Shown piece after piece: positions 33,091 to 61,066 of a stretch of 64,000 bases of DNA. The position numbers and the translations under genes are program-made. A model generated the notes under the pieces. It had not been told where the DNA came from, did not search any database, and was given only the letters and a program-made list of their open reading frames with translations. Origin of the DNA: Somniosus microcephalus (Eukaryota); the NCBI GenBank assembly GCA_052327205.1, contig CM126213.1:68014001-68078000 (forward strand), given 5' to 3'. Every line of letters starts with the position of its first letter. Positions within the stretch are counted from its first letter, which is position 1.

Positions 33091-33199
33091 ATTCCTCCCC
33101 TTTTAGATTAACAGTACCATAACACTCATTTAACAATTAAATATCAAACTAATTACAATTAACACTTTTAACATGCAACATTAGCTGAAAATAGTCTAC

Positions 33200-34269: not shown

Positions 34270-35883
34270 AGATACATAGATACATAGAAGATAGGAGCAG
34301 GAGTAGGCTATTCGGCCCTTCGAGCCTGCTCCGCCATTCAATGAGATCATGGCTGATCATCCAAATTCAGTACCCGGTCCCTGCCTTCTCCCCATATCCC
34401 TTGATCCCTTTAGCCTTAAGAAATATATCCAACTCTTTCTTGAATATAGTTAATGAACTGGCCTCCACCGCCCTCTGTGGCAGAGAATTCCACAGGTTCA
34501 CCACTCTCTGGGTGAAGAAATTCATAGAAACATAGAAACATAGAGATAGGAACAGGAGTAGGCCATTCGGCCCTTCGAGCCTGCTACTCATTTCAGTCCT
34601 AAATGGCTTACCCCTTATCCTTAGACTATGACCCCTGGTTCTGGACTCCCCGGCCATCAGAAACATCCTTCCTGCATCTAGTCTGTCCAGGCCTGACAGA
34701 ATTTTATAGGTTTCGATGAGATCCCCTCTCAATCTTCTAAACTCCAGTGAGTATAAGCCCAATCGACACAATCTCTCCTCATACGTCATTCCTGCCATCC
34801 CAGGTATCAGCCTGGTGAATCTTCGCTGCACTCCTTCCATGGCAAGAACGTCCTTCCTCAGGTAAGGCGACCAAAACTGCACACAATACTCAAGGTGTGG
34901 TCTCACCAAGGCCCTGTACAACTGCAGCAAGACATCCTTGTTCTTGTACTCGAACCCTCTTGCTACGAAGGCGAACATACCATTTGCCTTCTTAACCGCC
35001 TGCTGCACCTGCATGCTTACCTTCAGCGACTGGTGTACAAGAACACCCAGGTCTCTTTGCACTTCCCCTTCTCCCAATCTATTACCATTCAAATAATAAT
35101 CTGCCTTCCTGTTTTTGCCACCAAAGTGGATAACCTCACATTTATCCACATTATAGTGCATTTGCCATGTTTCTGCCCAATCACCCAACCTGTCCAAATC
35201 GTGCTGGAGTTTCACGACATCCTCCTCACAGCATATCCTCCCCCCCAGCTTTGTGTCATCTGCAAATTTGGAGATATTACATCCAATTCCCTCGTCCAGA
35301 TCATTAATATATATTGTGAACAGCTGGGGTCCTAGGACCAATCCTTGCGGTACCCGACTAGTCACTGCCTGCCACTCGGAAAACGACCCGTTTATTCCAA
35401 CTCTTTGCTTTCTGTCTGCCAACCAGTTCTCTATCCAAGTCAATACCTTGCCCCCAATCCCATGTGCCTTAATTTTGCACACTAATCTCTTATGCGGGAC
35501 CTTATCGAAAGCCTTCTGAAAGTCCAAATACACCACATCCACTAGTTCTCCCTTATCTATTTTACCAGTTACATCCTCAAAAAATTCCAGTAGATTAGTC
35601 AAGCATGATTTACCTTTTGTAAATCCATGTTGACTTTGTCCGATCCAGTCACTGCTTTCCAAGTGCTCTGCTATTACATCTTTTATAATGGACTCTAGCA
35701 TTTTCCCCACTACCGATGTCAAGCTTACCGGTCTATAATTCCCCGCCTTTTCTCTACCACCTTTTTTGAATAGTGGGGTAACATTAGCTACCCGCCAATC
35801 CATGGGTACCGTTCCAGAGTCTATCGAGTTCTGGAAGATGACCAGCAATGCATCTACTACTTCTAGGGCCACTTCCTTAAGTA
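34270..35883 (-). mobile_element. 5'-truncated CR1 LINE (open RT frame 34367-35872) inserted in Gypsy pol
   Basis: NYRPVSLTS, YLDFQKAFDKVPH, FADD; (TATCTATG)n tail; CTCAT at both junctions (34265-34269, 35884-35888). Confidence 0.92.
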
Positions 35884-37632
35884 CTCATGAAGCTCATTGA
35901 GCAGTCTATCCCTTAACTTGGGTGGAATTACCACTCGGGATCCACACATCAAGGTCCCCCGGCACACTGACAGCTGTTCTCTCCTTGTCGAGAATGCTGG
36001 CAACAGTGAGTCGCCATGTGCTGGCCATCCCTTCACCGTCAAATCATATACCCGAGACAGTGTCGGGTCATTTCGGGTTTCCTTTTCGATACAAGCGTTA
36101 GTTACCGGTAGGTATTCAACTATAGTCGAATGGAATATTTCGACAGGATCCACTGCTGGTGCATCCTCCGCAGTAGGCAGTGGCAGGCGTGATAGCCCAT
36201 CAGCATTTCCATGCTGTTTCGTGCCCTTATATTCAATCTCATAGTGGTGCGCCCCTAGAAAAAGTGACCATCTTTGTAGTCGTTGCGCAGTCATCACCGG
36301 AACGCCCTTCTTCGGATTAAAAATGGAGACCAAAGGCTGGTGATCAGCCAGCAAGGTGAATTTCTGCCCGTGCAGATAGTGATTGAACTTTTTCACTCCC
36401 CACACTAGGCTGAGGGCCTCCCTGTCAATCTGGGCGTAGTTACGCTCGGCTGAGGTTAGTGATCGTGACGCAAAGGCTATTGGCCTCTCTGAGCCGTCCG
36501 AGAATTTGTGCGACAGCACCGCTCCAATGCCGTAGGGTGACGCATCACATGCCAACCGAATTGGTAATGCTGGGTTGTAATGGGCCAATACCTCTTTCGA
36601 TGTGATTAGTGTTTTGCTCTTCTGGAAAGCTCGTCTACATTCGTCACTCCACTTCCATGGCACCCCAGTTTGCAGTAGGGTGTTCAGTGGGTGTAGTATT
36701 GTAGACAAATTTGGCAAAAACCTATGGTAGTAGTTTACCAGCCCGAGGAACGATCTCAGTTGTGACACATTTTCCGGTGCTGGAGCCTTGACTACTGCCT
36801 CAATCTTCTCTGGGGACTTATGTAACCCCTCTTTATCGATAACGTGGCCACAATACGAGGTCTGTTTTCTAAAAAGCTCGCATTTGGGGCGGTTAGCTCG
36901 GAGCCCATATTCCTGCAATCTAGTGAGCACCTGCTCCAGGTTGGCAAGGTGATCACTGTCATTTTCGCCCGTGACCAGGATGTCGTCCAAATAACACTGG
37001 GTCCCTGGGATTCCTTGCAGGACTTGTTCCATTGCCCTCTGCCAAATAGCCGGAGCTGATGCTACCCCAAATATCAGCCGGTTGTATTGGTAGAGACCTT
37101 TATGGGTGTTGATTGTGAAGTATTTTTTTGATGATGCTTCTACCTCCATTTGCAGATACGCCTGGACCAGATCAATCTTAGTGAAGCGTTTCCCTCGAGA
37201 TAGCGAGGCGAAAATATCTTCAATCCGCGGAAGTGGATATTGTACGGTGTGAAGGACCGGGTTCACTGTTACCTTAAAGTCCCCACAGATGCGAACCTTC
37301 CTTGGTTCCCTAGGCATGCTGCTCAATGACTTTTTCATCACAGGGACGATGGGTGTAGCCCACTCGCTCCAGTCTACCTTGGACAGTACACCTGAATGTT
37401 CCAGACTCTCCAGCTCTGCTTCGACGGCTGGGTGGATCGCATAAGATACCGTTCTGGCCTTAAAAAATTTTGGGCTTGCGTTTTCTTCAATTTTAATCGT
37501 CGCTGTCATGCCTTTTCGTGTTCCAAGTCCTTGCTGGAACACTTCTTTCGCGTCAGTTAGGATCTTTGACAGTCGCCCAGGTGTGACGTCGTCATCCTTT
37601 TTGTCAGCCACAGTCAGGGCCTGTATGGAATG
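35884..37632 (-). pseudogene. RT and RNase H portion of Gypsy copy 1 pol
   Basis: WATPIVPV, RICGDFK, YLDD, LACDASPYGIGAVL, NADGLSRLP; in frame with gag across a TGA at 37633-37635. Confidence 0.92.
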
Positions 37633-38772
37633 TCAATCCAGTTGTATTTTCCGGATCCATTCACGTCCCAGTAATGGTGGTCCTCCATCTTGCAATACAT
37701 ACAGGTCTAGTTTTGGTGTTTTCTTACCGTTATATATAACGGTCACCCTTATTTTTCCTTTGGGGTAGACTTTTTGCCCCGTGTGCGTCTTCAAAATAAT
37801 TTTTGTGTCTCTCAAGGGTATGTGTGAGAATAGCCGCTCGTAGTCCCGTCGGTTTATGACTGTTAGGGCTGATCCTGTGTCCAATTCCATCTTTACCTGG
37901 ACTCCTGCTATCTTGAGAGTGACCCAAATGGTTCGGTGATCCTCCGTTGTGATCACATTATGTAGTTTCAGACAACTCAGTTCCCTGCTTTCGGAGTCGT
38001 TATCACTCTTTTGTTCATCTGAACTATTCTCCGTCATCTTATGTACCTTCTTGTACTTTCCTTTGGTAGGTTTCTTATTGCTGGTTTTCTTTCCCGACCT
38101 GCAGACTCGTGCTATGTGTCCTACTTTTCCACACTGTCTGCACACTTTGTCTTTGAACCAGCAATCATTCTGGTCGTGTGTTGTTCTGCCGCAGCGATAG
38201 CACTTCTCTGTTCCATATGACATTTCGTTTGTGCCATATTCTTGCGGTCTCTGTTGTATCTCTGCAGCGTCCCGTGCTGCTGCTTCATATGATACCGCAA
38301 TGCTGAAAGCCTTTTCCAGCGTAAGGTCCTTTTCAGATAAAAGCCGTTTCTGGGTTCCTTCACTTTGAAGCCCACACACAAACTTGTCCCTTAAGGTATC
38401 TGCCAGTCCCGCTCCAAACTGGCAGTGTTTCGATAGTTTGCGCAGTTCTGTTAAATAATCAGCATTGCTTTCATCCTTATGCTGGTTCCGTTTGTGAAAC
38501 TTGAATCTTTCTGCTATCAGCAGCGGTGTGGGGTTTAAATGTTCCTGTAGTATCGTTACTATGTCTTCAAAACTCTTTTCCATTGGCTTCGTTGGGGTTA
38601 CTAGATTTCGTAATAAACCATACGTCTTTGCACCCATTAAATTTAACAATACCGACGCTTTTTTGTCATCTGACACCTCATTTGCCTTGCAGCATACCTC
38701 TATTAGTTCGACATATGTAGTCCAATCTTCGACTTCATTGTCAAATGCGGTGATACTGCCACTCTTCGGCAT
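37633..38772 (-). pseudogene. Gag and aspartic protease of Gypsy copy 1, ending at a premature TGA (TGG in copy 2)
   Basis: Two CCHC knuckles, LDTGS, LLGREW; read-through would give LD[W]HSIQAL as in copy 2. Confidence 0.9.
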
Positions 38773-39359
38773 TTTGGGTGTGGTTTAAAATGTCGTGTCC
38801 CAATGGCTTAAAATGGCGTCTCCCGCGCTTTCCTTCCTCCCCCGCTGCTGCCAACACCGCTCCCAGCGGTTCTCATGACAATGGCGGCGCCCTGTAGGTT
38901 CCACGCGTTTCTCCTGCGCTGCTGCCAACGCCGCTCTCGGCGGTCCTCGTGGCAATGGCGGCGCCTCGTGGGTTTCTGCGCGTCTCTCCCTCTCTTCGAC
39001 GCTGCTCGGCCCCTGAACACCGGCTGCGCCCTGTGCACTCTGCCCTCTCTCTCTCCCCTGTCGACGCTGCTCGGCCCTTTGCTGTGCCGCTCGGTCGGGC
39101 TCTAGCCCGCCGCTGTCCGGGAAGGGTCTGCGCACTACCTGTTGCCAGCCCGTTTCGCTGGACCACCTCGACTGGAAAGCCAAGCCTGGCTCTCGACAGC
39201 CTCCCCTGCAATTCTCGAGTCTCTGCTGGATGACTGGGCGGTTGCCTGTGGTCGACGCCCGAGTCTCTGGCCTTGACCTCCAATCCACTGATCTCCAGGA
39301 ACGAATCCCCGGGAGGTGATGCAGAGTTGCAGGTAGGTTCGAACTTGCCTTGTCGCCAA

Positions 39360-39551
39360 TGTTGTGTCCGTGTATAATAAGACACAGACTGCAGGAGAAC
39401 GGTACAACAGGTGTTTACTCAACGTGGCTCACACTGGAACTGATCTGTACAGATTACTACTCAGTGCTATATACAGGTGTGGTCACTGCCGGTACTGCAG
39501 TATACATGAGCTGTAAAAGATAGTTCCCCCCTTAAAGGTACATACATTACA
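39360..39551 (-). repeat. 5' LTR of Gypsy copy 1
   Basis: Followed on the minus strand by PBS TGGCGAC. Confidence 0.95.
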
Positions 39552-39599
39552 ATTTCCTTTAGCCCCCTCCACAAAATCCGTGACCCATGACAATGATTG

Positions 39600-43945: not shown

Positions 43946-44824
43946 CAATGTCACAAAGTTAGATGAAATGGTACATTAATGTTATTATCTCATCATTATA
44001 CTCTAAACAGAAATGTCTAGTTAGTACATTCTGTAACCTTGTTTAGCACTGATTTCTGATTCTATTGCCTAGTTAATGATAGTCCCGTTTTTGTGACTAT
44101 ATTTTAAAAATCTCAACAATTATGTGACAGATGCAGACAATAAGGTGGTAGATTAGATGTGAGCAGATTTATATTCTCTGACACCTTTATGTAACTAGAG
44201 CTACTGTAGCAAACTATATACAGCAGGCTTCTGGCTTAAAAAAGTAAACCAGACCAGGACTTGCTTTGTAGACAAAAACTGGGTCGCACCAGTGTTCTTT
44301 TAATTGATTGCGAGTTATTTTTGAGTGTTCTCAAAAAAATTTGAGGTTGAACAATTATACAGAATAAATATTTAGTTAAGCTTTAGAAATTTGTAGTACA
44401 GCTTCTGCTGATGCAGTGATGATATTCACTTTGATGCTGCCATGTCCCAACACTGTATGATGAACATGGCGTCTATGGGTATTGCTTTATCTTACTCTTT
44501 CACATATCACAGTGCTGCATCAAGTGAAGCGACTCAATTGATGTGGAACATTTCTTACTTGGGATCTTCTTTCACAGAGTCTTTTGCAACACTCTTAGTG
44601 TTACCCTGAACTGCAACCATAATATCACAGTCCAGAAGTGTTGGTGTTCTAGGCCATGCTCAAATGCAAGCCACTGGCTGATGTTGCCATTTTCCACCTT
44701 GCTGTACCTTGGCAGCAGTTTGAATAACTGGACGAAGGTGGTTGTGCAGTCCATTCACTTCTGTCTTGCTACATTTGTGCTAGGGCCCAACATTGCTTGT
44801 TAACATGAAATATGGTTTTATCTT

Positions 44825-47800
44825 TGTTGTGTATGTACCTTTAAGGGAATAACTGGTCTCAGACTGCAGTACCGGCAGTGACCACCCCTGTATAAAAGGC
44901 CCTAGCAGGCTTCTGTAGTTTCAGTTTCCAGGTTGTCTCCATTCAGTAAAGACTTGTTATGATCAACTCCTGCAGTCCGTGTTTCAATTATACACGGACA
45001 TAATACTGGCGACGAGGAAGAAACGAACTTACCTGCAACTCGGCAGCAGCTCAGACGACGTTATTGAAGGTCGGAGCCAGAAGAAAGAAAAAAAAATAAT
45101 CCAAAGAAACTCGAGAAACGGGCGTCGACCATGGGCAACCGCCCTCCAAATCATCGAATTGAAAAATTGCAGGAGAGACAGTCGAGAGCCAGGCTTGGTT
45201 CTCCAGTCTGTGGTTTCCCAGCTAATCGGGCTGGTGGCAGGTAGTGCACTGATCCTTCCTGGGCTGTGGCAGGCTAGAGCTCGATCGGGTGGCTCTGCAA
45301 TGGGGCCGGGCAGCGAGTCGGGAAGCAAAGAGAGAGAGAGAGAGGGTGGAGCACACAGGGCACGGCTGGTGCTTCGAAGCCGGGCAGCGTTCGGACTTAA
45401 GAAGAGGGAGGGAAGTGTCCCAGAGGGTCCGCTCCATGACGGGAACGGTTCTTCAATTAACGGAGCAAATATTGAAGCGCGATAGAAAAATAAAAATACC
45501 GCGGAGAGCGGCGTTGGCAGCAGCGATCGGGGAGGCGCGAAGACCATAGGGCGTCGCCATTACAGGATAGTAAAATAAATATAATCGCCAGCAACAGCGT
45601 TGGCAGCAGCGGCAGCGGCGGGAAAGCGCGGGAGGCGCCATCTTAACTCGGCGGGGAAGAAGGAAAAGCGCGGGAGGCGCCATCTTAGATTTTCAAGATG
45701 CCAAAGACTGGCGATATCACTGCCTTCGATAATGCAATAGAAGACTGGACCACGTATGTGGAAAGAGTCGAGGTATATTGCGAGGCAAACGAAATAGCCG
45801 ATGAGAAAAAGGCATCGGTATTGCTAAATTTAATGGGCGCAAGAACGTACGGCCTATTGCGGGACCTGATTACTCCAGCCAAACCGAAGGCGAAGAATTT
45901 TAACGAAATTGTTGCTATCCTACAGGAACACCTAAATCCTACACCGCTGCTGATAGCAAAAAGATTTAAATTCCACAGGAGAAATCAGCATAAAAATGAG
46001 AGCAATGCTGATTACCTTACGGAACTACGCAAGCTATCAAAGCACTGCCAGTTCGGAGCAGGACTGGCAGATACCTTACGGGACAAATTTGTCTGTGGAC
46101 TCCTGAGTGAAGGAACCCAGAAGAGGTTACTCTCAGAGAAAGAGCTGACGCTAGATAAGGCTTTCAGCGTGGCAGTATCGTACGAAGCAGCAGCAAGGGG
46201 AGCTGTGGAAATACAACAAAAGCCACAGGAATACGGCACCCACGAAATGACACGGGGATTTGCAAAATGTTATTGCTGCGGCAGAACAAACCATGACCAG
46301 AAGGACTGCTGGTCCAAGGACAAAATATGCAGGCAATGCGGAAAGATGGGACACATTGCACGAGTTTGCAGGTCTGGGAAGAAGACCAACGACAACAAAA
46401 AGGCTACTAAGGAACCGTACAGGAAAGTACAAAAGATGACGGACAGTAGTTCCGAAGACCAGATGAGCGATAGTGAATCCGGGAACAAGAGACTAAGCTG
46501 TCTCAAACTTCACAACGTAATCGCAAAAGAGGATCACCGAACCATTTGGGTCACCCTCACGATAGCAGGGTCCCAAGTCAAAATGGAATTGGATACAGGA
46601 TCAGCTCTAACCGTCATGAATCGACGCGACTACGAGCGGCTATTCTCACACATACCCTTGAGAGAGACATCCATTGTCTTGAGGACGTATACGGGGCAAA
46701 AAGTATACCCCAGAGGAAAAATAAGGGTGCCTGTCGAATACAACGGCAAGAAAATAAGGAAATTGTATCTCTACATTCTGCAAGATGGTGGACCACCGTT
46801 ATTGGGACGTGAATGGATCAGAAAGATAAGTTTAGACTGGCACTCCATTCAGGCACTGACGGTGGCTGGTAAAAAGGATGACGACGTCACTCCTGGACGA
46901 TTGTCAACAATCTTAGCTGACGCCAAAGAGGTATTTCAACAAGAACTGGGCACTCTTAAAGGCGTAACCTCCTTGATAAAAATAGAGGAGAATGCAATTC
47001 CCAAGTTTTTCAAAGCAAGACCGGTACCATATGCAATTCGCCCAGCCGTCGAGGCAGAGCTGGAGAATCTGGAGAATGCAGGCGTGTTATCTAAGGTAGA
47101 CTGGAGCGAGTGGGCGACACCCATCGTTCCTGTCATGAAGAAAACGTTAAACAAGAAGTCTGAGGAGCCAAGGAAGGTTCGCATCTGTGGGGACTTCAAG
47201 GTGCCAGTGAACCCAATCCTTCACACAGTACAATATCCTCTTCCAAGGATAGAAGACATCTTCGCCTCACTATCTGGAGGGAAGCGTTTTACAAAAATTG
47301 ACCTAGCACAAGCATATTTGCAGATGGAGGTTGAAGAATCGTCTAGGAAGTATCTCACGATAAACACTCACAAAGGTCTTTACCAGTATAATCGACTGGT
47401 ATTCGGAGTAGCATCAGCTCCGGCGATATGGCAAAGAGCGATGGAACAAGTCCTGCAAGGGATTCCGGGGACTCAGTGTTACTTGGACGACATCCTAGTG
47501 ACAGGTGAAGATGACAGTGAACACCTTGCCAACCTAGAGCAGGTGCTCACTAGACTACGTGAACATGGGCTATGAGCCAATCACCCTAAGTGCGAGTTTT
47601 TTAAGAAACAAATATCGTATTGTGGCCACATGATTGATGAAGAGGGGTTGCATAAGTCCCCTGACAAAATTGAAGCGGTAGTTAAGGCTCCAGCACCTGA
47701 AAATGTGTCGCAACTGAGGTCATTCCTCGGATTGGTGAATTACTACCATAAGTTTTTGCTGAATTTGTCCACAATTCTGCATCCACTGAACGCCCTACTA

Positions 47801-49940
47801 TGAACGGGAGTAGCTTGGAAATGGAGCGATGAATGTAAGCGGGCCTTTCAGAAGAGTAAAGACCTAATCACTTCAAGAGAAGTATTGGCTCACTACAACC
47901 CATCACTATCGATAAGACTGGCGTGTGATGCGTCTCCCTACGGCATTGGGGCAGTACTGTCACATAAATTCCTTGATGGTTCAGAGAGGCCGATAGCTTT
48001 TGCGTCACGCTCGTTAACTTCAGCCGAGCGTAACTACGCCCAGATTGACAGAGAGGCCCTCAGCCTGGTGTGGGGGGTGAAGAAGTTCAATCACTACCTG
48101 CACGGTCAGAAATTTACTCTACTAACTGATCATCAACCTCTCGTCTCCATTTTCAACCCTCAGAAGGGCGTACCGATAATGACGGCACAACGGCTACAGA
48201 GGTGGTCCCTTTTCCTAGGGGCTCACCAATATGACATCGAGTACAAAGGAACTAAACAGCATGGGAATGCTGATGGATTGTCGCGCCTACCGTTGCCGAC
48301 GGTGGAAGAAGAACTGCCAGTGGATCCAATGGAGTTATTCCACTCGACTATAGTCGAATGTCTCCCTGTGACGAATGCAAACATAGAAAAGGAAACACGA
48401 AATGACCCGACACTCTCCTGGGTCTATGATTTAACAGTGAAGGGATGGCCAGCACATGGCGAACCACTGTTGCCAGCATTCTTGCCAAGAGAACAGCTGT
48501 CAGTGTGCAGAGGAACCTTGATGTGTGGATCCAGAGTAGTAATTTCACCCAAATTGAAGGATAGAGTGCTCAATGAGTTTCATGAGGGTCATCTGGGAGG
48601 GGTAAAAATGAAGAACTTAGCCAGAGCGTTTGTGTGGTGGCCGGGAATCGATAGAGAAATCGAAGAGATGACCAAGAGCTGTACAGGATGCCAGAAGGTC
48701 CAAAACACCCCACCACAAGCCCCTCTACATCCATGGGAGTGGCCCTCATCTCCATGGCAAAGGGTACTCATTGATTTTGCTGGTCCCTTTATGGACTCGA
48801 TGTTTTTAATTGCGGTGGATGCACATTCAAAGTGGCCAGAGGTAATAAAAATGTCCTCAACCACCACAGAAAAAACTATCACAGTCTTACGAACCATATT
48901 CGCCAGGAATGGGCTGCCTGAACAGAATTGCTCTGACAATGGACCACAGTTTGTGTCTGAAGAGTTCCGGAGGTTCTTAAAGAACAATGGTGTTAAGCAT
49001 TACACATCCGCCCCATATCATCCAGCCATGAATGGATTGGCCGAGAGGTTTGTTCAAACATTCAAGAAGGCTATTCATGCAATGTGTAATGAAGATATAC
49101 CCCTACAACACAAGGTGGATAACTTCTTGTTTGCCTACCGGAATGCGACACATGCGGTTACCAACCAAACTCCAGCCATGATGTTCTTCAATCGAAGACT
49201 ACGATGCCGCTTGGATTTGGTTAAGCCAAACGTCAGAAGAGATGTGGAGAACAGGCAGTTTCAGAATATGAATGAAAGGCCGACCAGGAGTTTTAAGATA
49301 GATCAACCAGTTTTGGCCCGGGACTACCGCACAGAGAAATGGCAGCCAGGAACGATCTGCACACGGCAAGGACCCCTAATGTATACCGTGGACGTTGGAG
49401 AGAGCATTGTAAGACGCCATGCTGACCAGATTCTAGAGTCACTGGAAAACGTCAACTCCACACCACGATCTGATACACCTGGCGATGAAACCGAAGTACC
49501 AATTGCATCTACCGCAGAATCGGTGATATTGGAAGCAGACGAACCAAACAACGACATTGATCCCGACTCAACCTTGCCAGAAGAACCTGATATCCCAAAG
49601 AGGCGTTATCCAGACAGAATCAGGAAGCCTCCTCAAAGACTGAACTTATAATTGCTTAACTTCAACCAATGTATCTAGCAACCGTAATTGTAATTGTAAT
49701 TAGTTATTATTTAGTTGCTAAATGAATGTTATGTACTGTTTATCTAAAAGTGGAGGAATTGTTGTGTATGTACCTTTAAGGGAATAACTGGTCTCAGACT
49801 GCAGTACCGGCAGTGACCACCCCTGTATAAAAGGCCCTAGCAGGCTTCTGTAGTTTCAGTTTCCAGGTTGTCTCCATTCAGTAAAGACTTGTTATGATCA
49901 ACCCCTGCAGTCCGTGTCTCAATTATACACGGACATAATA
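44825..49940 (+). mobile_element. Ty3/Gypsy LTR retrotransposon, copy 2 (full length, two nonsense codons)
   Basis: 181-bp LTRs 44825-45005 and 49760-49940 (2 mismatches); TSD ATCTT; PBS TGGCGACGAGGA; PPT AAAAGTGGAGGAAT. Confidence 0.95.
45698..49651 (+). pseudogene. Single-frame gag-pol polyprotein (Gag, PR, RT, RNase H, IN) with in-frame TGA at 47573 and 47801
   Basis: CCHC x2, LDTGS, YLDD, CDASPYG, HHCC and DDE motifs; ORFs 45698-47575 and 47885-49651 share a frame. Confidence 0.92.
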
Positions 49941-50360: not shown

Positions 50361-51129
50361 TGGGACATGTTGAGGATGTGCCCAGCAGCAGGGCAATGCA
50401 GAAGCCAGAGATAAGAAAACTGTCTCTCAACACAGCACAGCGACCTTATGCTGAGCCAGAAAGAAGTTGGGCCCAGGCAGCCACTCCAGCCTTGGATGTG
50501 CTGGAATCAGTTGCAGGCCAACCCTTGAGCCTGCTCAAGGAGGTACAGAGCCACTGCATCGCAAGAGCCGCCTTTTGGGATTGAGCAGCTAGCCATCTAA
50601 CTTGTTCCTCCCTAAGATCCAAAAGGACCAATGGATTAAATACTACTCAATGCAAACCATACACAACCATCAAGGGGAAGCACCAGCCAGAAAAAGACAC
50701 TAATTTCGAACACTCTGAACACCAGTTAGATGAATAAATTAGTTAAAGTCCATTTGCACTCTGTGCAGAATTTATTTATATTGAAGAAGATTTCTATAGC
50801 AGGAAATTAATGGGTTGGAACTTGGCAGGCTGCTACATCAAGCAGAGGATAATGGTGGGTATGGTGTTTGGGAAGCCAGTTCATTTGGAACATATATTGC
50901 AAACTTCTTGTACTACGATGACGTTGAAATTTATTTGAATTGTTGTCTATTAAATATTACAAGAATGCAAAATAGGGTCAATGACAGGTCAAAGTGGCAT
51001 TTGGTGGTTTCCGCCCCAACCTGCAGGTCTCAGGCTGCAGTGTAAATTCTGCAGTTTGAGCCCCAAAGGGCAAACTTTAACAGGGCCAAGAAGGAAATAA
51101 AATTAAACTTAAAAAAATAATTTCCCACT

Positions 51130-54100
51130 TGTTGTGTATGTAACCGTTTACCTTTAAGGGAACTATAGAATGTGACCGTTCGCCTTTAAGAGCACTACTT
51201 TAGGGTGGCACTATTTATTGGCTCATGTATACTGTAATACCGATAGTGACCACACCAGTATATAAGGGTTGTGATACGTTAACTAGATCAGAAATCGCCC
51301 AGACCACTGAATAGTAAAGACCTGTTTTGTTTGTACTTCTAAAGTCTCTAAAGTTATTTACTGCACAACCTACAGACTTTACAGTGGCGACGAGTCCGAT
51401 CGTACCCTGCGGCAAGACTAACCAGTAGCAGAGAGCTTCAAAAAGAAAACACGAGGCTCCGTCTACTAAAAGTATAGTACTTACTGGAAGCTGGAAGATT
51501 AACAGCAAAGCTGCGGCAGCAACAGGCACAGATTACCCTGCTACCACATCTTGAGCGAGCCAATCAGCCTAAAACAAGGCGGCCGAAGAGACTGTGAGTA
51601 GTTAAAACAAATAAATTTAAAAAAAAACGGGGTAGAAGTATTTGGAGGAGAAGGGCAAAGCATTCGGGTCCAACGGCGTCGGGTGACAGCCGGACCGCGG
51701 GCAATGTGAGAAGCCGTGCAGCAACCGCTGCCACGAAGCGCTGAGCCTGCGAGTAGGCGCGGGAGTGTCAGAGCCAGAGCCGAGCGGGAGGCGTTGCAAG
51801 CCAGCGATCGCATCTCCAGATAAGGGCGAGAGCCGCGAGAGCGATCGGATCTACAGATAAGGGCCGGCAGCCGCTTCGCGATCCAGCGATCGCATTATAG
51901 ATAAGGGCCGCACTCGGGCTGACAGACGGCGTCGGGGGACCGGGTGAAGACCGCCAAGCGCGGGAAAACCGCCATTGAAGTGGGCGGGGAGAGCGAGAAG
52001 CGCGGGAAAGCCGCCATTTTTCGGGGAAAACCGCTGAAGAAGAAGGAAGAAGCGGGAAACCGCCATCTTGGAAATTATTAAGAATTTCAGAAAAGTAATA
52101 AGATTTTTCAGAAAGGCTGGTGTGTTCTCAAGAAGAGAGAAGAAAATTAATAATAAGTAAAGTAATACTTGTACTGTTCTCAAAAAGAGAAGAAGATGCC
52201 TAAGCGAGGAAATATTAATGACTTTAATGCAGAAATAGAAGACTGGGCCACGTATGTGGAACGCATAGAAATATATTGCGTAGCCAACGAAATTGAGGAT
52301 GACAACAAGGCAATAACTTTGTTAAATTCGATGGGAGCAAAAACATACGGGCTTTTGAAACATCTAATAGCACCAGTTAAACCAGTGGACCAGACCTTCG
52401 AAGAGATCGTAACAGTGTTGAAGGATCACTTGAACCCCACACCGTTGATGCTGGCTGAACGATTTAAATTTTACGCCAGAACCCAGAGGCAAGATGAAAG
52501 CAATGCGGAATACTTAGTCGAACTGCGTAAGCTAGCGAAATACTGCCAGTTTGGAGGGAATTTGACAGAGGCGCTGCGGGACAAGTTCGTATGCGGCTTG
52601 GCCAAAGAAGGAACGCAGAAGCGACTTCTGGAAGAAAACGACCTCACACTGGACAGGGCTGTCCTCATAGCTTCATCGCACGAAGCCGCAGCGAAAGGGA
52701 CGGCGGAAATGCAGCTAAAGGCGGCGGCACTCGGGGTGGACCAAATTACAGCAAGCACTCCCAAATGCTACCGTTGTGGAAAGACAACGCACGACCAGAA
52801 TCAGTGCTGGTTTAAGAACCAAGAGTGCAGGAAATGTGGCAAACTGGGTCACATCGCGAAGGTATGCAGGTCCGGAAAGAAGACCAACAAGCAAAGGAAG
52901 CCACCACCACAAGGAAAGTACAACAAGGTGCATCAGGTGGCTGAAAAGAGTTCAGACGAACAAAATTCAGACTCAGACCCAAACAGCCAGGAGCTGGATA
53001 GTCTGAGAATCCACCATGTGGGTAAAGTAACTGATCTACAGTTGATCTGGGTCACACTAAAAATAGCGGGAGTCCAAGTACGAATGGAGATGGACACGGG
53101 ATCAGCTGTATCCGTCATCAACCAAAAGGACTATCACCGGCTATTCTCTCACATACCCTTAAGAAATACCAAATTCATATTACAGACATACACGGGGCAT
53201 CATGTATACCCCCTGGGAAAAATACGAGTCAAGGTGAGAGATAGGGGTAAAGAACACCCACGAATGTATCTGTACGTACTACCTGAGGGAGGACCACCAC
53301 TTCTGGGACGGGAGTGGATCAAGAAAATAGACATGGGATGGCACTACCGACAAGCAATGACGAGTGAGGACTCGGTGCAGACAAGCAGCTCAGACTCCGA
53401 GCCGGAAGACGATAAGTCCAGCTTATGTATGAAAAACAAGATTAACATGAACTCACGGACTAAGGTTGGGAAATCGATGGCGTGCATAAAGACAGAGAAT
53501 TCTGAGTCTGTTCAAGCTACAGACATATGCATTACGGAGGAACACCGGGCTAGAACTCAACGTTATGTCAAAGTACAACGACAATTAGAACAGTTGAGTG
53601 CCCATCTCCTACAAGAGATGGAAAAGGTGAAAAAGTTCTGGGACACCGAATGGGAGTCCCTGGAAAGACAACAGAGACAGCTCGCTCAAGCAGAGAGCGA
53701 CCATAGAGCCATCGTGGCCAAGTACCAATCACATCTCCCTGAGGCTGTTCAGGAACTAGAATATACACAGAACGATCCAAAGGAAGAGGAATCTTCAGGA
53801 AGTCAGGATGGTATTCCAGTTCACCTCTACGACTTGTTGCAAGCAGAGTGTAACGAGTTGAAAGAACAGTATGAACAGGCTAGGACTACAATCCTGGAAG
53901 GGGTTAACTTGGCAACTTCCGAAAAGCTCGTGTTAGTGAAAGCATATGAGCAACTAAAGGTTGAACATGAACGACTAAAGGTTGACCATAAGCAAGAATT
54001 ACAAAGTCTGCAGGAAATGTTTGATGAGCTTCAGGCCAAGGCTGACTCATCGTTAGGGATTCAATCCATAGGAAAAAAATTAGTGGTGGAAGACATACCA

Positions 54101-55543
54101 GAACAGGGAATACAGGATGTCCAAGAACTCGTTAAATTATTAAAGGAAACACAAAATAAATATGAAGCGGCAATGGCCGAGGTCCAACGACTTGAAGAAC
54201 AGATGCAACTGGAAATCTTTTCAGTGGAAGAAAAGGGAACTGTAAGAAACACAGAGACCGTAAGAATGGGCCATGAACATGAGCTTAAATCGTCAGAGGA
54301 GAAGGGTTTGGAGCTCTCAAAAGTTATTGAAATAGCCGAGGTTGCAACACAGACTGAGAAGATGGCAGCAGAGCAACCCTTAGATACCAAAAGTACGCTG
54401 ACTCATGTCAAGGTTGAACAACAGAACGCTGAAACAACTGCTCCGGTAGAGGAATTGAATAGTCCGATCAATCAATCTCCAAAGGAAGTTGAAGTATTAA
54501 AATCACAAATGAGGTCATTAGTAAACAACTTGCTGAAAGCCCAGAAAAAGTTAGAGGAAGCGGAACACGTGAAGAAGTCTCTTCAGGAAAGATGTCTGAA
54601 TTTGGAACAAAAGCTGGCTGACGTCCAGCTGGGTAGGGAGGACATAGAAGACCCTCTCGCTGGCCTAGCTCAGGACGACTCCGAATATTACTATGTCCTG
54701 TCCTGCCCAACTTGTAACTTCGACTCCCACCATACAGAAATCATGGAGGAGCACCGAAAGTCTACGGAACATCGGGAGAAGGTGGCTCTACTACGGAAAA
54801 AGGAGGAAGAGAAGGAGGAACTGCGCATGCAGCTGGCAGCTGACAGTGGAGCCCAGAGAGTCTCCAAGAAGCAGAAAAGGAAAAGTCGAAACAGAAGATG
54901 ACCCATCTGAACCATTATTACCTCTACCAGATCACACACGTGGTCCCTCCGAACGGAGCCAATTCAGTTCGGAAGTTCAAATTGTTAAACCCATGGAAGG
55001 ACTATTGAATGAGTCACTCCAGCAATGTGAACCGACTACACCACAGAGACTGAATCTATGAACTGTTTTCCACAGAGACTGAATCTGTGATCTGTTTTGA
55101 CATGAAGTTATATATGTTATTATGTTATGTTAAACATGAAGTTATATGACGTTGACTCCATCGAGAGTATATCTGTAAATTGTTATATGACGTTGACTCC
55201 ATCGAGAGTATATCTGCAAACTGTGTATATAAAATTGAAGATTGTATGTTTAACGGGATTCTGTAAGTAATAAGCTAGGAAGGGAGGAGTGTTGTGTATG
55301 TAACCGTTTACCTTTAAGGGAACTATAGAATGTGACCGTTCGCCTTTAAGAGCACTACTTTAGGGTGGCACTATTTATTGGCTCATGTATACTGTAATAC
55401 CGATAGTGACCACACCAGTATATAAGGGTTGTGATACGTTAACTAGATCAGAAATCGCCCAGACCACTGAATAGTAAAGACCTGTTTTGTTTGTACTTCT
55501 AAAGTCTCTAAAGTTATTTACTGCACAACCTACAGACTTTACA
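51130..55543 (+). mobile_element. Non-autonomous Gypsy-derived LTR element, copy 3 (no RT, RNase H or integrase)
   Basis: Identical 254-bp LTRs 51130-51383 and 55290-55543 (TG...CA); TSD CCACT; PBS TGGCGACGAG; PPT AGGAAGGGAGGAG. Confidence 0.95.
52196..54901 (+). CDS. Gag-protease fused to a long coiled coil (ANKRD24/RAI14/UACA-like segments), C2H2 zinc finger and basic tail; ~901 aa
   Basis: Uninterrupted ORF from the ATG homologous to the gag start of copies 1 and 2; CCHC x2, MDTGS, LLGREW, then E/Q/K/L-rich helical sequence, CPTC-x12-H-x5-H, SKKQKRKSRNRR. Confidence 0.85.
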   Translation: MPKRGNINDFNAEIEDWATYVERIEIYCVANEIEDDNKAITLLNSMGAKTYGLLKHLIAPVKPVDQTFEEIVTVLKDHLNPTPLMLAERFKFYARTQRQDESNAEYLVELRKLAKYCQFGGNLTEALRDKFVCGLAKEGTQKRLLEENDLTLDRAVLIASSHEAAAKGTAEMQLKAAALGVDQITASTPKCYRCGKTTHDQNQCWFKNQECRKCGKLGHIAKVCRSGKKTNKQRKPPPQGKYNKVHQVAEKSSDEQNSDSDPNSQELDSLRIHHVGKVTDLQLIWVTLKIAGVQVRMEMDTGSAVSVINQKDYHRLFSHIPLRNTKFILQTYTGHHVYPLGKIRVKVRDRGKEHPRMYLYVLPEGGPPLLGREWIKKIDMGWHYRQAMTSEDSVQTSSSDSEPEDDKSSLCMKNKINMNSRTKVGKSMACIKTENSESVQATDICITEEHRARTQRYVKVQRQLEQLSAHLLQEMEKVKKFWDTEWESLERQQRQLAQAESDHRAIVAKYQSHLPEAVQELEYTQNDPKEEESSGSQDGIPVHLYDLLQAECNELKEQYEQARTTILEGVNLATSEKLVLVKAYEQLKVEHERLKVDHKQELQSLQEMFDELQAKADSSLGIQSIGKKLVVEDIPEQGIQDVQELVKLLKETQNKYEAAMAEVQRLEEQMQLEIFSVEEKGTVRNTETVRMGHEHELKSSEEKGLELSKVIEIAEVATQTEKMAAEQPLDTKSTLTHVKVEQQNAETTAPVEELNSPINQSPKEVEVLKSQMRSLVNNLLKAQKKLEEAEHVKKSLQERCLNLEQKLADVQLGREDIEDPLAGLAQDDSEYYYVLSCPTCNFDSHHTEIMEEHRKSTEHREKVALLRKKEEEKEELRMQLAADSGAQRVSKKQKRKSRNRR

Positions 55544-58500
55544 CCACTCCTTTTGACTTTGGGTGATAGTGTAAAATGGGCACTCTCGACTCAGCCACCA
55601 TTTGGAAATGAAAATTGAAAGAACTGTATAAAGGATGGTATTGCCCGTTTTACACTATCACCCATCCACCCCCCCCCCCCACGCATTCTCGCCCCACCCC
55701 CGCGATCTCTCCCTACTGCCGCAATCTCTCCCTCCTCTCCACCTGGCTCCAAGCCCAACCCCACCACCGACCCCAAACTTCTCGATTGCCGGGGACCATC
55801 CCCAGCAGTCTCTGGCTGTTGCTTTGCAGTGCAAGCAGTCCCACCCGGCAGCTGGCCAGCCTCTCAGCTGCTGGGCTGGAAATGGAGTAAAACATTCTAA
55901 AATAGCAGGATCTCTGCCCTCCCGGTATAACAGGGCCGGGGTCTCCAAACCTGAAATAAACTCGTGAATGATTCGCATTGAGGTCCAATAATGGAGTATC
56001 AATGCCCCTTAACTTAATTTTTTAAGTTGTGTTTCAACAGAGCTATGGTGCAGTTGTTTGACTGTATAATTATTTTTAAAAATATTGTGATTATCACAAT
56101 GCCATAAAACATAGAACATTGTATGTTTATCTGGAATTTGAGCTTTGTTATCCAAGTTATCTTGGACTCTGATACTCACAGTCACCATTTGTTACAGTAC
56201 TGCCAAACACCTCTCCTGATATGAAGTTGAAAATTTTTCATAAACGTTACGTGAAGGTGAGGCAACTTCATATACTGTTTTAAATGAATTACAGTGTGTG
56301 GAGTCTTCAGTTTGGTGTCAGGCATACACATATGACCCAATGGCAACTGGAAAACACTTACATGTTCTTAATTCAAACCTAAACATCCATTATTTATATA
56401 GTACAATTATGAATCTGAGAAGCTAAAATGACAAACTGGGGGGAATTTTAACATCAAAGAGTGAGTGGGTTTGGGAGCGGGTGGATAGTAAAAAGCACTG
56501 AACTTGACAGCACATTGGGAAGCTGGCTCCAACCCCTTGACTTCCGCATTTCACTGGAGTGCATTCGGAACATGCGAGAAACCCCCTTGGGAGAGATGGG
56601 TTACCAATTGAAAGCAATTAAGAGGTCATTAAGAGGTTTTTTAACAGGGGTTTTCAACTCTCAATATGGGTCTATGGGTTTCCCGAGCTTCCTGGACTTT
56701 GCCAGTGAAACCAAGGCAAGAGCACAGCAGCAATTGAGGGGGCTGAAGAAATGACAGGCAAAAAGAGACCTCACACCTGCTTCCTTGCCGAAGTGAAACA
56801 TTTCTGCTCACAGCACTTGTATTGAGAGTTTGCTTTCAGTACTTCACAGGTGATTTCTACAACTTTGGAGGTGGATTCTATTACTTTGGAGGTGACTTTC
56901 AGTACATTGGAGGTCACTCTCACTACTTTGTTCCTTTGATCTCCACTTTAAATCTGTCATATGTCAGATCAGCATGGGTGTGCTTAAGTTGTTTCACCTA
57001 GGACCTCAGATGAGGACCAAGATGAGCACCAGCATCAACAGCAGGAGCAGCTGCTCACATTGCTGTCCGGGATGCCCAGGATGGACTCGTCATGGCAACA
57101 TTTAGTTAGGTTGCACCACTGTACCCATCTGGCAGCCACATGCTGAACACACTTGCCCCCCACCCCCCAGCAAAAAGCAATCCTGCAATCAACAAAGCAT
57201 CCCTTTCACAGACACCCATTGCCCAGATTTAAGTCTTGTCTTGCCATTCATCAGAACTGAGAAGACCAATTGGCAGGCTGCAGGCGGGTGGAAAGCGCAG
57301 GCAACTGGAAAGTGCAGGCAACTGGAAAGTGGTGTAAAAAAATCATTTTATATGTGAATCAAAACTTATACATTAACTTATTATTGTGACATGTCTAACA
57401 CACTCATGTGCATACCCTTGTGCAACTAATAATTTTTCATCTTCCTTTTCCTATAGCTCCTACAAACTGCAACCTCTGTGGCTTCAGCAGAGGTAGAGGC
57501 AGGCTGCTCACATCCCTGCTCTGACTGCTCAGATGCTCTTGGCCGACGACCTCTGGGTTTTGGAGCCCGTGAGGGCCCCGCCAAAGGCTGCTCCACATGT
57601 TCAGCTGTGCGAGTTTAAGAGAGGGCATTAGCTGGAGCATTGAGCTCCAAAATAGCAGCGCTGGCGTCAAATCAGCATTACACGTTGAGTGACGTCATGA
57701 TCTGCCTACTCTGCATACGTTCGGTGGAAGCTCACGCTGTGCGCGCTAACACCCTCACCAGGATGGCATCCGGCACAACTCATACGAGAAGTGTGTGCGC
57801 ACCCGCCAAGGACGCCACTTTGGATCCAAATGGCACTCGTAGAGCTGAAACAGCAGGCGCTAAGGAGCCGAATTTTGCGCCCATTGTAGCAACACCCCTC
57901 TCCCCGAGTGACTGTCTCTGAGCTGCTGAGTGTACAGGAGAGAATGAATGATGGGATGGATGAGTTGATGATAGTGCTGCCAGAGATACAGGGGAAATCA
58001 ATCTCTTGGTCAGGACTTGCACCCGCTGGAGGGAATAAACTATTCACTTGAGTCTGCGAGACCGGTATACTGTCTTATACAGCTAGTATGTTTGTTGTGT
58101 CTTATTTACCTTCTGAATTTCCATCCATTTTAAAATCCAATGGGTCTTATACATAGAGAAAAACTATAACTTCTATTATATTGATCTTTGACCACTGGCT
58201 TGTGCAGCGCTGGTCCCCTGCAGACGATGGTCAGATGGACAGTAAAACTGGCAGATTTTATTAGACAGTTGGCCAAGAAGACACATATTTTCCTTGATCT
58301 TAGTGCTTGTCACTGGCCTAACTGTGACCACACCACACCAGCGGCAGCGTGATCTCCATAAATTTGAAACACACGTCCCAACTTCCCCATCACATATATT
58401 TTAAACACATTAGCACATGGCTGCCTGTCGCCTGATGATGCCGTGACGTCATGGATGGCCGCGATTTTAACTCGGGCCAGGATCGGTGTGTGGTGGGAGG

Positions 58501-59231: not shown

Positions 59232-59592
59232 GGGCAGCACGGTGGCATAGTGGTTAGCGCTGTTGCCTCACAGCGCCAGGGACCCGAGTTCGAATCCAGC
59301 CTCGGGTGACTGTCTGTGTGGAGTTTGCACATTCTCCCCGTGTTTGCGTGGGTTTTCTCCGGGTGCTCCGGTTTCCTCCCACAGTCCAAAGATGTGCGGG
59401 TTAGGTTGATTGGCTATGATAAAAATTGACCCTTAGTGTTAGGGGGATTAAATACGTGGGGTTACGGGGATAGGGTGGGATATGTGTTGGTGTAGGGGTT
59501 ACGGGGATCGGGTGGGATATGTGTCGGTGCAGGCTCGATGGGCCGAAATGGCCTCTATCTGCACTGTGGGGTTTCTGTGATCTGATCTGTGA
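59232..59592 (+). mobile_element. HE1-like V-SINE
   Basis: Near-identical to 20833-21184. Confidence 0.85.
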
Positions 59593-60213
59593 ATGCAAAA
59601 CTTCATAAATTGGAACTAATTGGCAATCTGACTCAAGTGTAAATAGGGAATATTTATGTTAGAAGTAAAAAAATACAGTACAGCAGTGGGTGCTTTTCTG
59701 AAGTTCAGGTTATTGTGGGGCAAAGTAAAGGGGACTTTAGTCTGATGCTGACTGTGCTGTACCTGAAATAGGAGCACTTGCTGCAAATACTAGGTGACAA
59801 GAATGAAATACATGCTCCACTCTAGCACTGACATCTGTGACCTACTTCGGCAGCCCTGTGGTGCATGGATGTTAACAGTGGGTGTCCTTACATCAGATGA
59901 CAAAGCACTGCATCCAGTTCTCTGAAGGCCCTGTACAGACACTATCCACAACAGCTGTTGCCAGGTAGGTGCAACACCGACTCCAAATATGGTGGTGGCA
60001 TCTTGGAAGGTGCAGCCAATCAGTCTTTGTCGATTTTTCTGGATTTAATGCTCAAGTTTAAGAGTGCCTGAAAAATTGGTGTTATGCGCAGGATATGTGG
60101 CCGCTAACCCTTTCCCACTGTTCTGAGCCTGAATAGCACAGTCCCCAAATTTATTGTATTGTTTTTCAGGTGACTGCGCCCAAAGAGGGCACAGCAATGT
60201 AAATTACCAGCAT

Positions 60214-60843
60214 CTCAGACCGCGGGTGTTGGCGAGAGGCGCGAGCGGGAAGCTTAAAAAGGCTTCAGAGACCCAGGTAAGGCCTCAGACCGCGGGTGTC
60301 GGCGGGAGGTGCGAGCAGGAAGCTTAAAAAGGCTTCAAAGACCCAGGTAAGGCCTCAGACCGCGGGTATCAGTGGGAGGCGCGAGCGGGAAGCTTAAAAA
60401 TGCTTCAGAGACCCAGGTAAGGCCTCAGACCGCGGGTATCGGCGGGAGGCGCGAGCGGGAAGCTTAAAAAGGCTTCAGAGACCCAAGTAAGGCCTCAGAC
60501 TGCGGGTATCGGCGGGAGGCGCGAGCAGGAAGCTTAAAAAGGCTTCAGAGACCCAGGTAAGGCCTCAGACCGCGGGTATCGGCGGGAGGCGCAAGCGGGA
60601 AGCTTAAAAAGGCTTCAGAGACCCAGGTAAGGCCTCAGACCGCGGGTATCGGCGGGAGGCATGAGCGGGAAGCTTAAAAAGGCTTCAGAGACCCAGGTAA
60701 GGCCTCAGACCGTGGGTGTCAGCGGGAGGCGCGAGCGGGAAGCTTAAAATGGCTTCAGAGACCCAGGTAAGGCCTCAGACCGTGGGTGTCGGCGGGAGGC
60801 GCGAGCGGGAAGCTTAAAAAGGCTTCAGAGACCCAGGTAAGGT
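60214..60843 (+). repeat. Tandem array of nine 70-bp CpG-rich monomers at the 5' end of a CR1
   Basis: Unit CTCAGACCGCGGGTRTCGGCGGGAGGCGCGAGCGGGAAGCTTAAAAAGGCTTCAGAGACCCAGGTAAGGC at a 70-bp period. Confidence 0.92.
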
Positions 60844-61066
60844 GTACCAGTCTCCAGTCTCGGACCTCAGAGGGAAGGAGAGAGGTAAAAAGTAACCCAG
60901 GTGTGACGTCACCAGAAAACGGGTAAGTGATTGGTTGGTGAGTATTTCTCTCTTTTTTAAGCTTAAACTCTGTGGTTTATAGTTTCTAAGGTGCGATATT
61001 CATCATCTAGAATCGGGGCAGAGGGTATTTAAGAATAATATTAATAAATTTAATTAATTACATAGA

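Follow-up and report, generated by a model that had tools for sequence, protein, structure and literature searches.

The window analysed here, a 64,000-nucleotide stretch of Somniosus microcephalus contig CM126213.1, carries on its forward strand an LTR element with a single ORF (52196-54901) of 901 aa and the following features:

51125..51129, +: 5' target-site duplication (TSD) CCACT, matching the 5-mer at 55544-55548
51130..51383, +: 5' LTR, 254 bp, TG...CA, 100% identical to the 3' LTR
51385..51394, +: primer-binding site, common to the Pol-bearing helpers
52196..52870, +: Gag, aa 1-225, with two CCHC knuckles (ORF and Pfam)
53051..53345, +: aspartyl protease (Pfam), with its catalytic Asp at aa 300
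54857..54898, +: basic C-terminal tail (sequence compared with older copy L065)
54893..55134, +: 3' UTR with two inherited pieces inside
55277..55289, +: polypurine tract
55290..55543, +: 3' LTR, 254 bp, 100% identical to the 5' LTR
55544..55548, +: 3' TSD CCACT

The element shows the Ty3/Gypsy hallmarks (TG...CA LTRs, primer-binding site, polypurine tract and TSD) together with the Ty3/Gypsy order, in which an aspartyl protease comes after Gag and its CCHC knuckle, and its Gag motifs, single ORF and 5-bp TSD make it a candidate member of the Mag-like clade of Gypsy. In a Pfam search of the 901-aa ORF, the CCHC knuckles fell at aa 190-225 and the protease at aa 286-376, with E-values of 1e-4 to 7e-4 in the window copy, just under the cut-offs; the protease passes these cut-offs in sister copies. 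No RT, RNase H or integrase was found by Pfam in the window element, which in this respect departs from an autonomous Ty3/Gypsy element with its own RT-RNaseH-integrase in order. An earlier sequence-only reading had described the identical 254-bp LTRs, the CCACT TSD, the primer-binding site, the polypurine tract and an ORF of about 901 aa in which Gag-protease is followed by ~520 aa without RT, RNase H or integrase, all of which is borne out. The basic tail arose by a net 7-nt insertion that shifted the old frame, as judged against L065, and the 3' UTR holds former STK10 coding sequence (54893-54975) and integrase-tail DNA of a helper (55041-55134).

Copies, helpers and transcription

A 30-mer spanning the protease/cargo junction has 1,772 genomic matches with at most two mismatches (reversed control, 0), and the subfamily of the window element has about 1,770 young copies, this one included, within a surrounding Gypsy clade that numbers at least 11,311. 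Misassembly, which the sequence-only reading had named as a possible source of the structure, is rejected because all 40 of the 40 scored genome matches span the whole cargo at 99-100%; together with the junction count, the dispersed TSD-flanked copies and the RNA reads, this rules out a single-locus artefact. Two LTRs and a 5-bp TSD flank 18 of 19 fetched copies, which lie at 17 distinct sites (two with common flanks); the 901-aa ORF is present in 15 of the 18 two-LTR copies and the LTRs are identical in 10 of 18, although these 19 were the top-ranked matches and hence biased towards intact ones. The expected dispersed copies with intact ORF and distinct TSDs therefore exist. The element is also transcribed with a sense bias, as the RNA-seq check proposed earlier could reveal: reads cover 28-29 of 30 bins, with the sense bias seen in one run.

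Among 40 sampled copies, 28 have the Gag-protease-cargo structure and the other 12 have Pol; in this position-ordered sample 11 of 28 cargo copies and 3 of 12 helpers are intact. None of the 28 non-autonomous copies sampled is a plain Gag-protease deletion derivative, and no envelope gene was seen in the element or in the 12 helpers. Since the window element lacks Pol and helper L116 has RT-RNaseH-integrase inside one 1,322-aa ORF, the former is a non-autonomous derivative. Its mobilisation in trans, as previously suggested, is upheld by the Pol-bearing relatives (12/40), by a recombinant (L119) in which a cargo-type LTR and leader are joined to Pol, and by constrained Gag and protease. The two neighbouring copies within the window, to which the element had been likened, are indeed Gypsy elements but form an outgroup in the Gag tree rather than its closest helpers; the tree is a ladder running from helpers through the STK10, optineurin and ankyrin types to the window family.

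Composition of the cargo and selection on its frame

Matched against host exons, the cargo reads as a patchwork of spliced host RNA with four source genes (STK10, an ANKRD24/ankycorbin-like gene, optineurin and DNAJC21):

53362..53682, +: STK10, three exon remnants, 76-84% DNA identity, the putative residue of the founding circle capture
53687..53752, +: ANKRD24/ankycorbin-like gene, complete 66-nt penultimate coding exon, 88%
53752..53753, +: back-splice junction from the penultimate-exon donor to the acceptor of an upstream 1,512-nt exon, with host GT/AG ends
53753..54285, +: ANKRD24/ankycorbin-like large exon, first ~512 nt, 81%, one 21-nt insertion
54275..54646, +: optineurin fragment made of three exons, spliced and in normal order, 81-88%
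54650..54830, +: DNAJC21 C2H2 zinc-finger fragment, four zinc ligands retained

The captured, non-retroviral nature of the cargo, as first proposed, stands to the extent that it is host-derived; it is not one protein, and its treatment as one unknown gene was rejected on the separate host matches of its segments. Both the host origin and the back-splice junctions had escaped the sequence-only reading. As a stand-alone query, cargo aa 384-502 gave no match, and their origin was resolved only via less diverged sister copies. The host STK10 exons lie at G000:C8:167.19 Mb (L154); a candidate STK10 gene at C26:34.36 Mb was rejected as another element copy. The optineurin piece is colinear with its host gene and starts mid-exon, and a back-splice junction sought within it was not found; beyond about aa 428 of optineurin, the 4 matches among 73 scored were all host exons and none an element. 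The DNAJC21 piece is colinear with its host over 60 aa, and all four zinc ligands are retained at an identity of 55%.

Purifying selection acts on both Gag and protease: among diverged subfamilies (six pairs each) dN/dS is 0.06-0.13 for Gag and 0.20-0.32 for protease, and for the window-family Gag against four diverged subfamilies it is 0.07-0.13. The cargo is near neutral yet stop-free. Its dN/dS is 0.67-1.10, below 1 in 6 of 8 non-independent pairs with an interval excluding 1 in two, and 0.35-0.75 without transition correction; the values below 1 in most pairs and the lower uncorrected values mean that some protein-level constraint may exist. Under neutral simulation at 0.2-0.25 changes per site, 13-16 stops accumulated and none of 2000 runs stayed stop-free, whereas the lineage retains its frame across ~0.2-0.35 changes per site; where old STK10 sequence lies beyond the stop, 5 of 8 copies carry indels that break its frame. 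The simulation thus supports element-level selection for an open frame, as suggested before, and the neutral evolution that had been set against the whole idea is found for protein function, not for the frame. The notion of one specific delivered cargo protein does not hold up, as the cargo is near neutral and its content is swapped between subfamilies.

We consider it probable that the element belongs to a helper-dependent, satellite-like Gypsy lineage in which pol was replaced by host RNA through RT template switching, repeatedly from circular RNAs, and in which the cargo is mainly frame-keeping filler. The element would supply its own Gag and protease and co-assemble with helper Gag-Pol, borrowing RT and integrase from the helper. 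The filler would bring the RNA and the polyprotein towards helper length, and a single frame open almost to the 3' end would escape nonsense-mediated decay (NMD) and preserve translation-coupled packaging, with selection acting on frame, length and perhaps the basic tail and little on amino acids. The host-derived extension measures 470-750 aa across the lineage (~520 aa in the window element), and copies of the 3.5-kb founder type number about 75 (75 of 98 matches), while the 4.4-5.2-kb types run to thousands.

The cargo might instead function as an accessory protein that the protease sets free, made up of a helical spacer, a zinc finger and an NLS-like basic tail, with a role in particle assembly, RNA binding or nuclear entry and with the tolerance of substitutions expected of a coiled coil. 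In all subfamilies it is acidic and helical (D+E 0.18-0.21), and a low-confidence single-sequence model predicts long helices (pTM 0.30, pLDDT 56). Every subfamily has a basic tail, remade by frameshift, and retains the motif directly after the protease upstream of every junction; the surviving zinc ligands and dN/dS values of 0.63-0.78 in several comparisons point the same way. However, cargo content has been exchanged wholesale between successful subfamilies, most dN/dS intervals include 1, and microhomology with an A-rich element would likewise favour A-rich coding RNA rich in E, K and Q, leaving an accessory-protein role rather unlikely overall.

Junctions of the captured host RNAs

Exact reversed junctions, from a downstream donor to an upstream acceptor, occur in three captures of the lineage, from STK10, the ankyrin gene and a gene with a TBC domain, in which the acceptor sits 45.5 kb upstream of the donor. 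The ankyrin junction is the sole reversed junction surviving in the window copy (53752|53753); it has 6,020 genomic copies, and a second junction in the family has 1,427. The STK10 capture measures 1,245 nt, exactly one turn of a circle, and contains five host exons at 98-100%; helper and host have 12 nt of microhomology at entry and 6 nt at exit, with one common host position, and its junction was predicted from the permuted exon order before junction-bearing copies were found. Entry and exit of the third (TBC-domain) circle lie at one host bond, with a seamless turn in sister subfamilies and 4 nt of microhomology, while the ankyrin capture is a partial turn only, with ~10 nt at entry. At the optineurin switch points the microhomology is ~9 and 7 nt. 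Five of the 7 cargo sources were tested: optineurin and DNAJC21 are colinear, and a circular origin is shown for the other 3.

Read in this way from DNA junctions, the putative templates are host circles. The founder exchanged RT-RNaseH-integrase for exactly one turn of the STK10 circle through microhomology; optineurin, DNAJC21 and a piece of the ankyrin-gene circle were added later, and sister subfamilies gained a turn of the third circle. The reversed junctions could also stem from linear RNAs, by trans-splicing or tandem exon duplication, or from RT switches chancing on exon ends, and the ankyrin exon ends do have 4 nt in common in spliced mRNA; Dong et al. 2016 (PMC4897178) caution that non-colinear junctions have other possible sources. 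Yet each of the three reversed junctions coincides exactly with GT and AG boundaries, two of the captures exit where they entered, the assembly has a single copy of the large ankyrin exon, and each tested donor and acceptor has one host match, all of which makes such an origin very unlikely.

For the favoured template switching onto circles, the steps would be as follows. Circular RNAs would be co-packaged in particles, and RT would jump onto a circle at short homology and copy round it. As RNase H would destroy the template behind RT, copying would run out at the entry point, and RT would have to jump back via the same short sequence; the insertion would be clean because this return jump uses the sequence of entry. 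More tentatively, and with the balance of our judgement against it, circular RNAs may be a favoured capture substrate of LTR elements, the RNase H-limited single turn giving a clean in-frame insertion, and the lineage may be a running exon-shuffling system that samples germline circRNAs and in which a new accessory protein with helical, zinc-finger and NLS-like-tail parts replaces Pol and outcompetes the helpers.

Relation to known systems and implications

Gene capture by LTR elements and circRNA-derived pseudogenes are each already known. The latter were defined by Dong et al. 2016 (PMC4897178), who in the text available left the mechanism open and in whose mouse circRFWD2 set of 33 high-confidence copies LTR sequence is over-represented in the flanks. 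By analogy, these mouse copies may represent the same phenomenon on a small scale. As in that study, the shark copies have non-colinear exon junctions without poly(A), with reversed exon-exon junctions at exact splice sites in three genes. Unlike decaying non-coding pseudogenes, the shark pieces lie in one open frame, their junctions form part of an intact Gag-protease ORF in a family that is amplifying, and three circles were taken serially, with entry and exit points that stand out on comparison with helper and host.

Tan et al. 2016 (PMC5131818) described LTR-mediated retroposition, including a mouse 'Super' retrocopy with four genes and an Alu. The shark exon maps likewise show intronless host segments between 5' and 3' element parts, with microhomology at the switch points and several parental genes joined in sense and often in frame, but those retrocopies, as far as described, occupy one or few insertion sites and the older ones are mostly decayed, whereas the shark chimera is a replicating lineage that keeps its frame; the main text of PMC5131818 contains neither 'circular' nor 'back-splic'. 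In maize Bs1 (review PMC13317346), pieces of three host genes likewise build a chimeric ORF in an LTR element, and the available portion of the review does not mention circular RNA; unlike Bs1, the shark element has a conserved Gag-protease fused in frame, thousands of copies and ongoing capture. TR-GAG elements (PMC8704663) are also non-autonomous, with a single Gag-bearing ORF between LTRs and mobilisation by an autonomous relative, but as described there they encode Gag alone, whereas the shark lineage retains protease and its long host-derived extension. In the open-access literature we found no description of an active, ORF-keeping family that captured whole turns of circles in series.

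Defective gag-onc transducing retroviruses have pol replaced by gag-fused spliced host sequence and need a helper. The shark element resembles them in both respects, but has no envelope gene and its host part shows no sign of selection for activity; the near-neutral cargo argues against a host insert selected in this way. That the element serves the host, either as a dominant-negative Gag restricting its family or as a particle delivering a host protein, is highly improbable: although Gag and protease are conserved, the element is transcribed and cargo elements stand at 28 to 12 against helpers with which they may interfere, there are thousands of young, scattered, TSD-flanked insertions whose LTRs are nearly identical, no envelope gene, a near-neutral cargo and, in place of the single fixed non-transposing locus of a domesticated Gag or restriction factor, 1,772 junction copies with distinct TSDs. 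The restriction role floated in the sequence-only reading fits poorly because the cargo lineage outnumbers its helpers.

The family would preserve a record of circular RNAs copied back into the genome, in which donor element, host exons and product can be compared directly and switch points are resolved to the nucleotide, and its copies could serve as a dated record of germline circRNAs. The mechanism left open in PMC4897178, as far as that text goes, gains a specific prediction: one full turn with the same entry and exit. Here a non-autonomous LTR lineage of a vertebrate keeps a long frame open while the encoded amino acids are not conserved, and it offers a natural test of NMD, RNA-length and cis-packaging constraints. 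Thousands of transcribed copies with host exons and back-splice junctions will mislead both gene annotation and the calling of circRNAs in these sharks, and element copies could influence the donor genes by way of small RNAs.

The element and its clade

The sequence-only reading had described an LTR element that lacks pol and has one ORF of ~901 aa, and this stands: in the window sequence the element is bounded by a CCACT duplication, PBS and PPT are present, and a domain search of the element found no RT, RNase H or integrase in the 901-aa ORF, for which the closest database proteins in a protein search are from sharks.

Features of the element in the window
51130-51383: 5' LTR, 254 bp, identical to the 3' LTR
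52196-54901: ORF, 901 aa, with CCHC knuckles and protease
55290-55543: 3' LTR, 254 bp

The same reading had named multiple dispersed copies as a test for a family, and the genome (6.45 Gb searched) contains them. All 40 scored matches to the DNA of the cargo (the part of the ORF that follows the protease in place of pol) are full length at 99-100% identity, and the protease/cargo junction is found 1,772 times. Among 19 fetched copies, a sample biased toward the best-ranked matches, paired LTRs with 5-bp TSDs are present in 18; LTRs are identical in 10 of these 18 and the ORF is kept in 15. The window also holds two full-length-type Gypsy elements (32899-39554, minus strand, and 44824-49940, plus strand) with LTRs 99% identical and broken Gag-Pol frames, the former containing a LINE RT insertion (34367-35884); the Gag of both branches outside the cargo clade, as an outgroup. 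A tandem array of a 70-bp unit (60144-60912, 93-95% alike) and a ~345-bp sequence present twice (20832-21175 and 59236-59581, 97% alike) lie elsewhere in the window.

The clade, which we take to be the Mag clade, accounts for at least 11,311 exact genomic matches to a degenerate Gag 30-mer. When every second of the first 80 loci listed on contig 1 was sampled, 12 of 40 carried Pol (helpers) and 28 of 40 a cargo, with no plain deletion derivative among the 28 non-autonomous copies. By our own intactness rule, 11 of 28 cargo copies are intact, including both from the young subfamily of the window element, versus 3 of 12 helpers; in three helpers, Gag and Pol are joined in a single intact ORF of 1,317-1,322 aa. 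In a tree built from the Gag of 48 real copies (midpoint root, one search, model without recombination), the branches form a ladder that starts with helpers and passes via STK10-only, optineurin and ankyrin (ANKRD24/ankycorbin-like) types, named by captured host gene, to the window subfamily. Because this ladder is ~0.3 changes per site deep in all, whereas LTR pairs resolved at full length are 98-100% identical in every class, we infer fast change of the lineage over numerous rounds of replication, with little ageing of the copies once inserted. A Pol-bearing locus, L119 (G000:C1:19.55 Mb), has identical LTRs, is 93-98% like a cargo subfamily in LTR, leader and part of Gag, and has Pol of another lineage, marking it as a cargo-helper recombinant. 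The window subfamily, too, seems to have arisen by recombination, with its 5' part of ankyrin type and its 3' part of optineurin type. Another locus (L085:5737-7800, plus strand) combines a distant Gag with a 3' cargo that shares 92% identity with the window copy.

Host origin of the cargo and its reversed exon order

By alignment, the cargo is a mosaic of coding RNA from several host genes and not the single captured protein of the earlier reading. The element is genuine, and what makes it more unusual than in the first description is a different feature from the one given there. Residues 518-699 resemble a shark ankycorbin/ANKRD24-like protein (58%) and are preceded by a 20-aa piece from the C-terminus of that protein; residues 694-817 resemble optineurin (67%); less diverged sister elements reveal residues ~390-495 as STK10 and ~818-880 as the DNAJC21 zinc finger. 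The window cargo pieces are intronless and 76-88% identical to the host genes of this genome. Other cargoes were seen in frame, namely titin/obscurin-like immunoglobulin I-set domains (L138:3812-4495, plus strand) and a piece of ~150 aa (L067:3350-3830 and L138:2801-3259, plus strand) without an informative Pfam match, presumably KMT2A-like with a taspase-type site. In one copy (L071:2561-6763, plus strand) the frame continues into a fragment of a LINE endonuclease and reaches 1,400 aa.

Three captures run against host exon order. In the ankyrin piece, the end of one exon and the whole 66-nt penultimate exon are followed, from base 1, by a 1,512-nt exon that lies upstream of the 66-nt exon in the host gene (C13); the host exon ends are GT and AG, and the back-splice junction (window 53752|53753) occurs 6,020 times in the genome. 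An older cargo copy (L083:2210-7101, minus strand), which matches the ankyrin-gene exon at 96% identity, sits in antisense orientation within this gene itself, in an intron between the final two exons of the inferred circle, possibly by chance given copy density.

Sister elements place STK10 residues 386-686 before residues 305-388, an order from which a founder carrying a reversed junction was predicted. Searching for the deleted STK10 middle found this type, 75 of the 98 matches being near full length, with the reversed junction visible in the five copies inspected. This junction agrees exactly with the host donor and acceptor on C8, and the capture spans 1,245 nt and five exons at 98-100% identity. 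In one helper (L121), a stretch of 12 nt where pol starts and another of 6 nt within the integrase tail are shared with STK10, both at the same STK10 position: pol was exchanged in the founder for one full turn of a putative STK10 circle.

The third case is an extra insert in 5 of 40 sampled copies (486 nt in three), whose host donor lies 45.5 kb downstream of the acceptor on C3 (G000:C3:347.94-348.02 Mb), with TBC-domain exons just upstream.

Insert from the third probable circle
L136:3254-3745, plus strand: insert in a sister-subfamily copy

Entry and exit of the insert fall at the same host bond, and its junction occurs 1,427 times in the genome; we take the gene to be EVI5/EVI5L. Two other loci (G000:C41:29882039-29882623 and C11:91798971-91799585) encode almost complete TBC domains, each in one open frame, and are either single-exon genes or retrocopies.

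Colinearity of the optineurin piece (six exons, starting mid-exon) and of the DNAJC21 piece (60 aa) speaks against circles as a general rule for captures. A circular origin is read from the junctions of three of seven cargo sources, five of which were traced, and the templates of the reversed junctions were very probably circular RNA.

Selection and a proposed satellite life cycle

We estimated dN/dS for pairs of real copies, which share branches, by modified Nei-Gojobori counts, with kappa (3.99) taken from 634 fourfold sites. Six pairs among diverged subfamilies gave 0.06-0.13 for Gag, 0.20-0.32 for protease and 0.67-1.03 for cargo; two closer pairs gave 0.39-0.42, 0.20 and 1.36 (few changes), and 0.78 and 1.10, respectively. 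Helper Pol gave 0.21. Cargo residues evolve almost neutrally (0.67-1.10 over eight pairs, with intervals excluding 1 in two; 0.35-0.75 without transition correction). Against the host ankyrin exon, with the host branch included, values were 0.63 (0.39-0.99) for the window copy and 0.32-0.44 for older copies. The open reading frame is clearly kept by selection, since simulated neutral change of 0.2-0.25 per site produced 13-16 stops and no stop-free run in 2000, and in the old STK10 sequence that now lies beyond the stop, 5 of 8 copies have indels that break the frame and 4 of 8 have two stops. Compensating small gaps in DNA alignments of the STK10 remnant of two diverged copies (68-69% identity) may be alignment noise. 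A single frameshift became established, at the extreme end of the frame, where it created a new basic tail.

The element resembles gag-onc transducing retroviruses. As proposed earlier, it is Pol-less and keeps a Gag and protease of its own, and these are under selection; its mobilisation in trans would follow general retroelement biology, element RNA being translated into Gag-protease-cargo that would co-assemble with helper Gag-Pol, whose enzymes would copy and integrate it. Reverse transcription could then enter a co-packaged circle at a short homology, copy it once round while RNase H removes the template, and exit through the same homology. The cargo would be filler that restores length, placed in the reading frame as the only place tolerating it; the short founder (3.5 kb) has ~75 copies versus thousands for later types (4.4-5.2 kb; helpers 5.1-5.6 kb). 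We consider it likely that the cargo is filler rather than a specific accessory function. The accessory reading draws on the basic tail, on zinc ligands that have been retained and on the mild constraint seen in the cargo. The combined account, a helper-dependent satellite with filler from circular RNAs, is only slightly less likely. The element is a non-autonomous Gypsy derivative and no domesticated gene.

LTR-mediated capture of spliced RNA via microhomology, multi-gene chimeras included (PMC5131818), and maize Bs1 (PMC13317346) are described, and circRNA-derived pseudogenes have LTR-rich flanks, with the mechanism given there as unknown (PMC4897178). The shark element would join both kinds of retrocopy, LTR-mediated and circRNA-derived, in a living satellite; it differs from TR-GAG elements, which are presented as Gag-only (PMC8704663). 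Our literature search (mainly open-access, main texts) found neither a description of this family nor any account of circRNA capture, be it serial or whole-turn, within an amplifying Gag-protease ORF.

Transcription of the family

The ORF was found in whole or part in twelve sequencing runs from six studies, with at least half of its words in five runs under three organism labels, perhaps not distinct species. Two RNA runs (one label) contributed 5,625 of 16.7 million and 4,495 of 14.4 million records on the element, summed over many copies, covering 28 and 29 of its 30 bins with flanks almost bare; one run is strongly one-stranded in the sense direction and the other about two to one. The element family is transcribed; RNA-seq had been among the checks suggested earlier. 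In both runs reads (26 and 10) skip 315 nt of Gag (window 52426-52742), in frame and without canonical splice ends, probably reflecting an expressed deletion copy.
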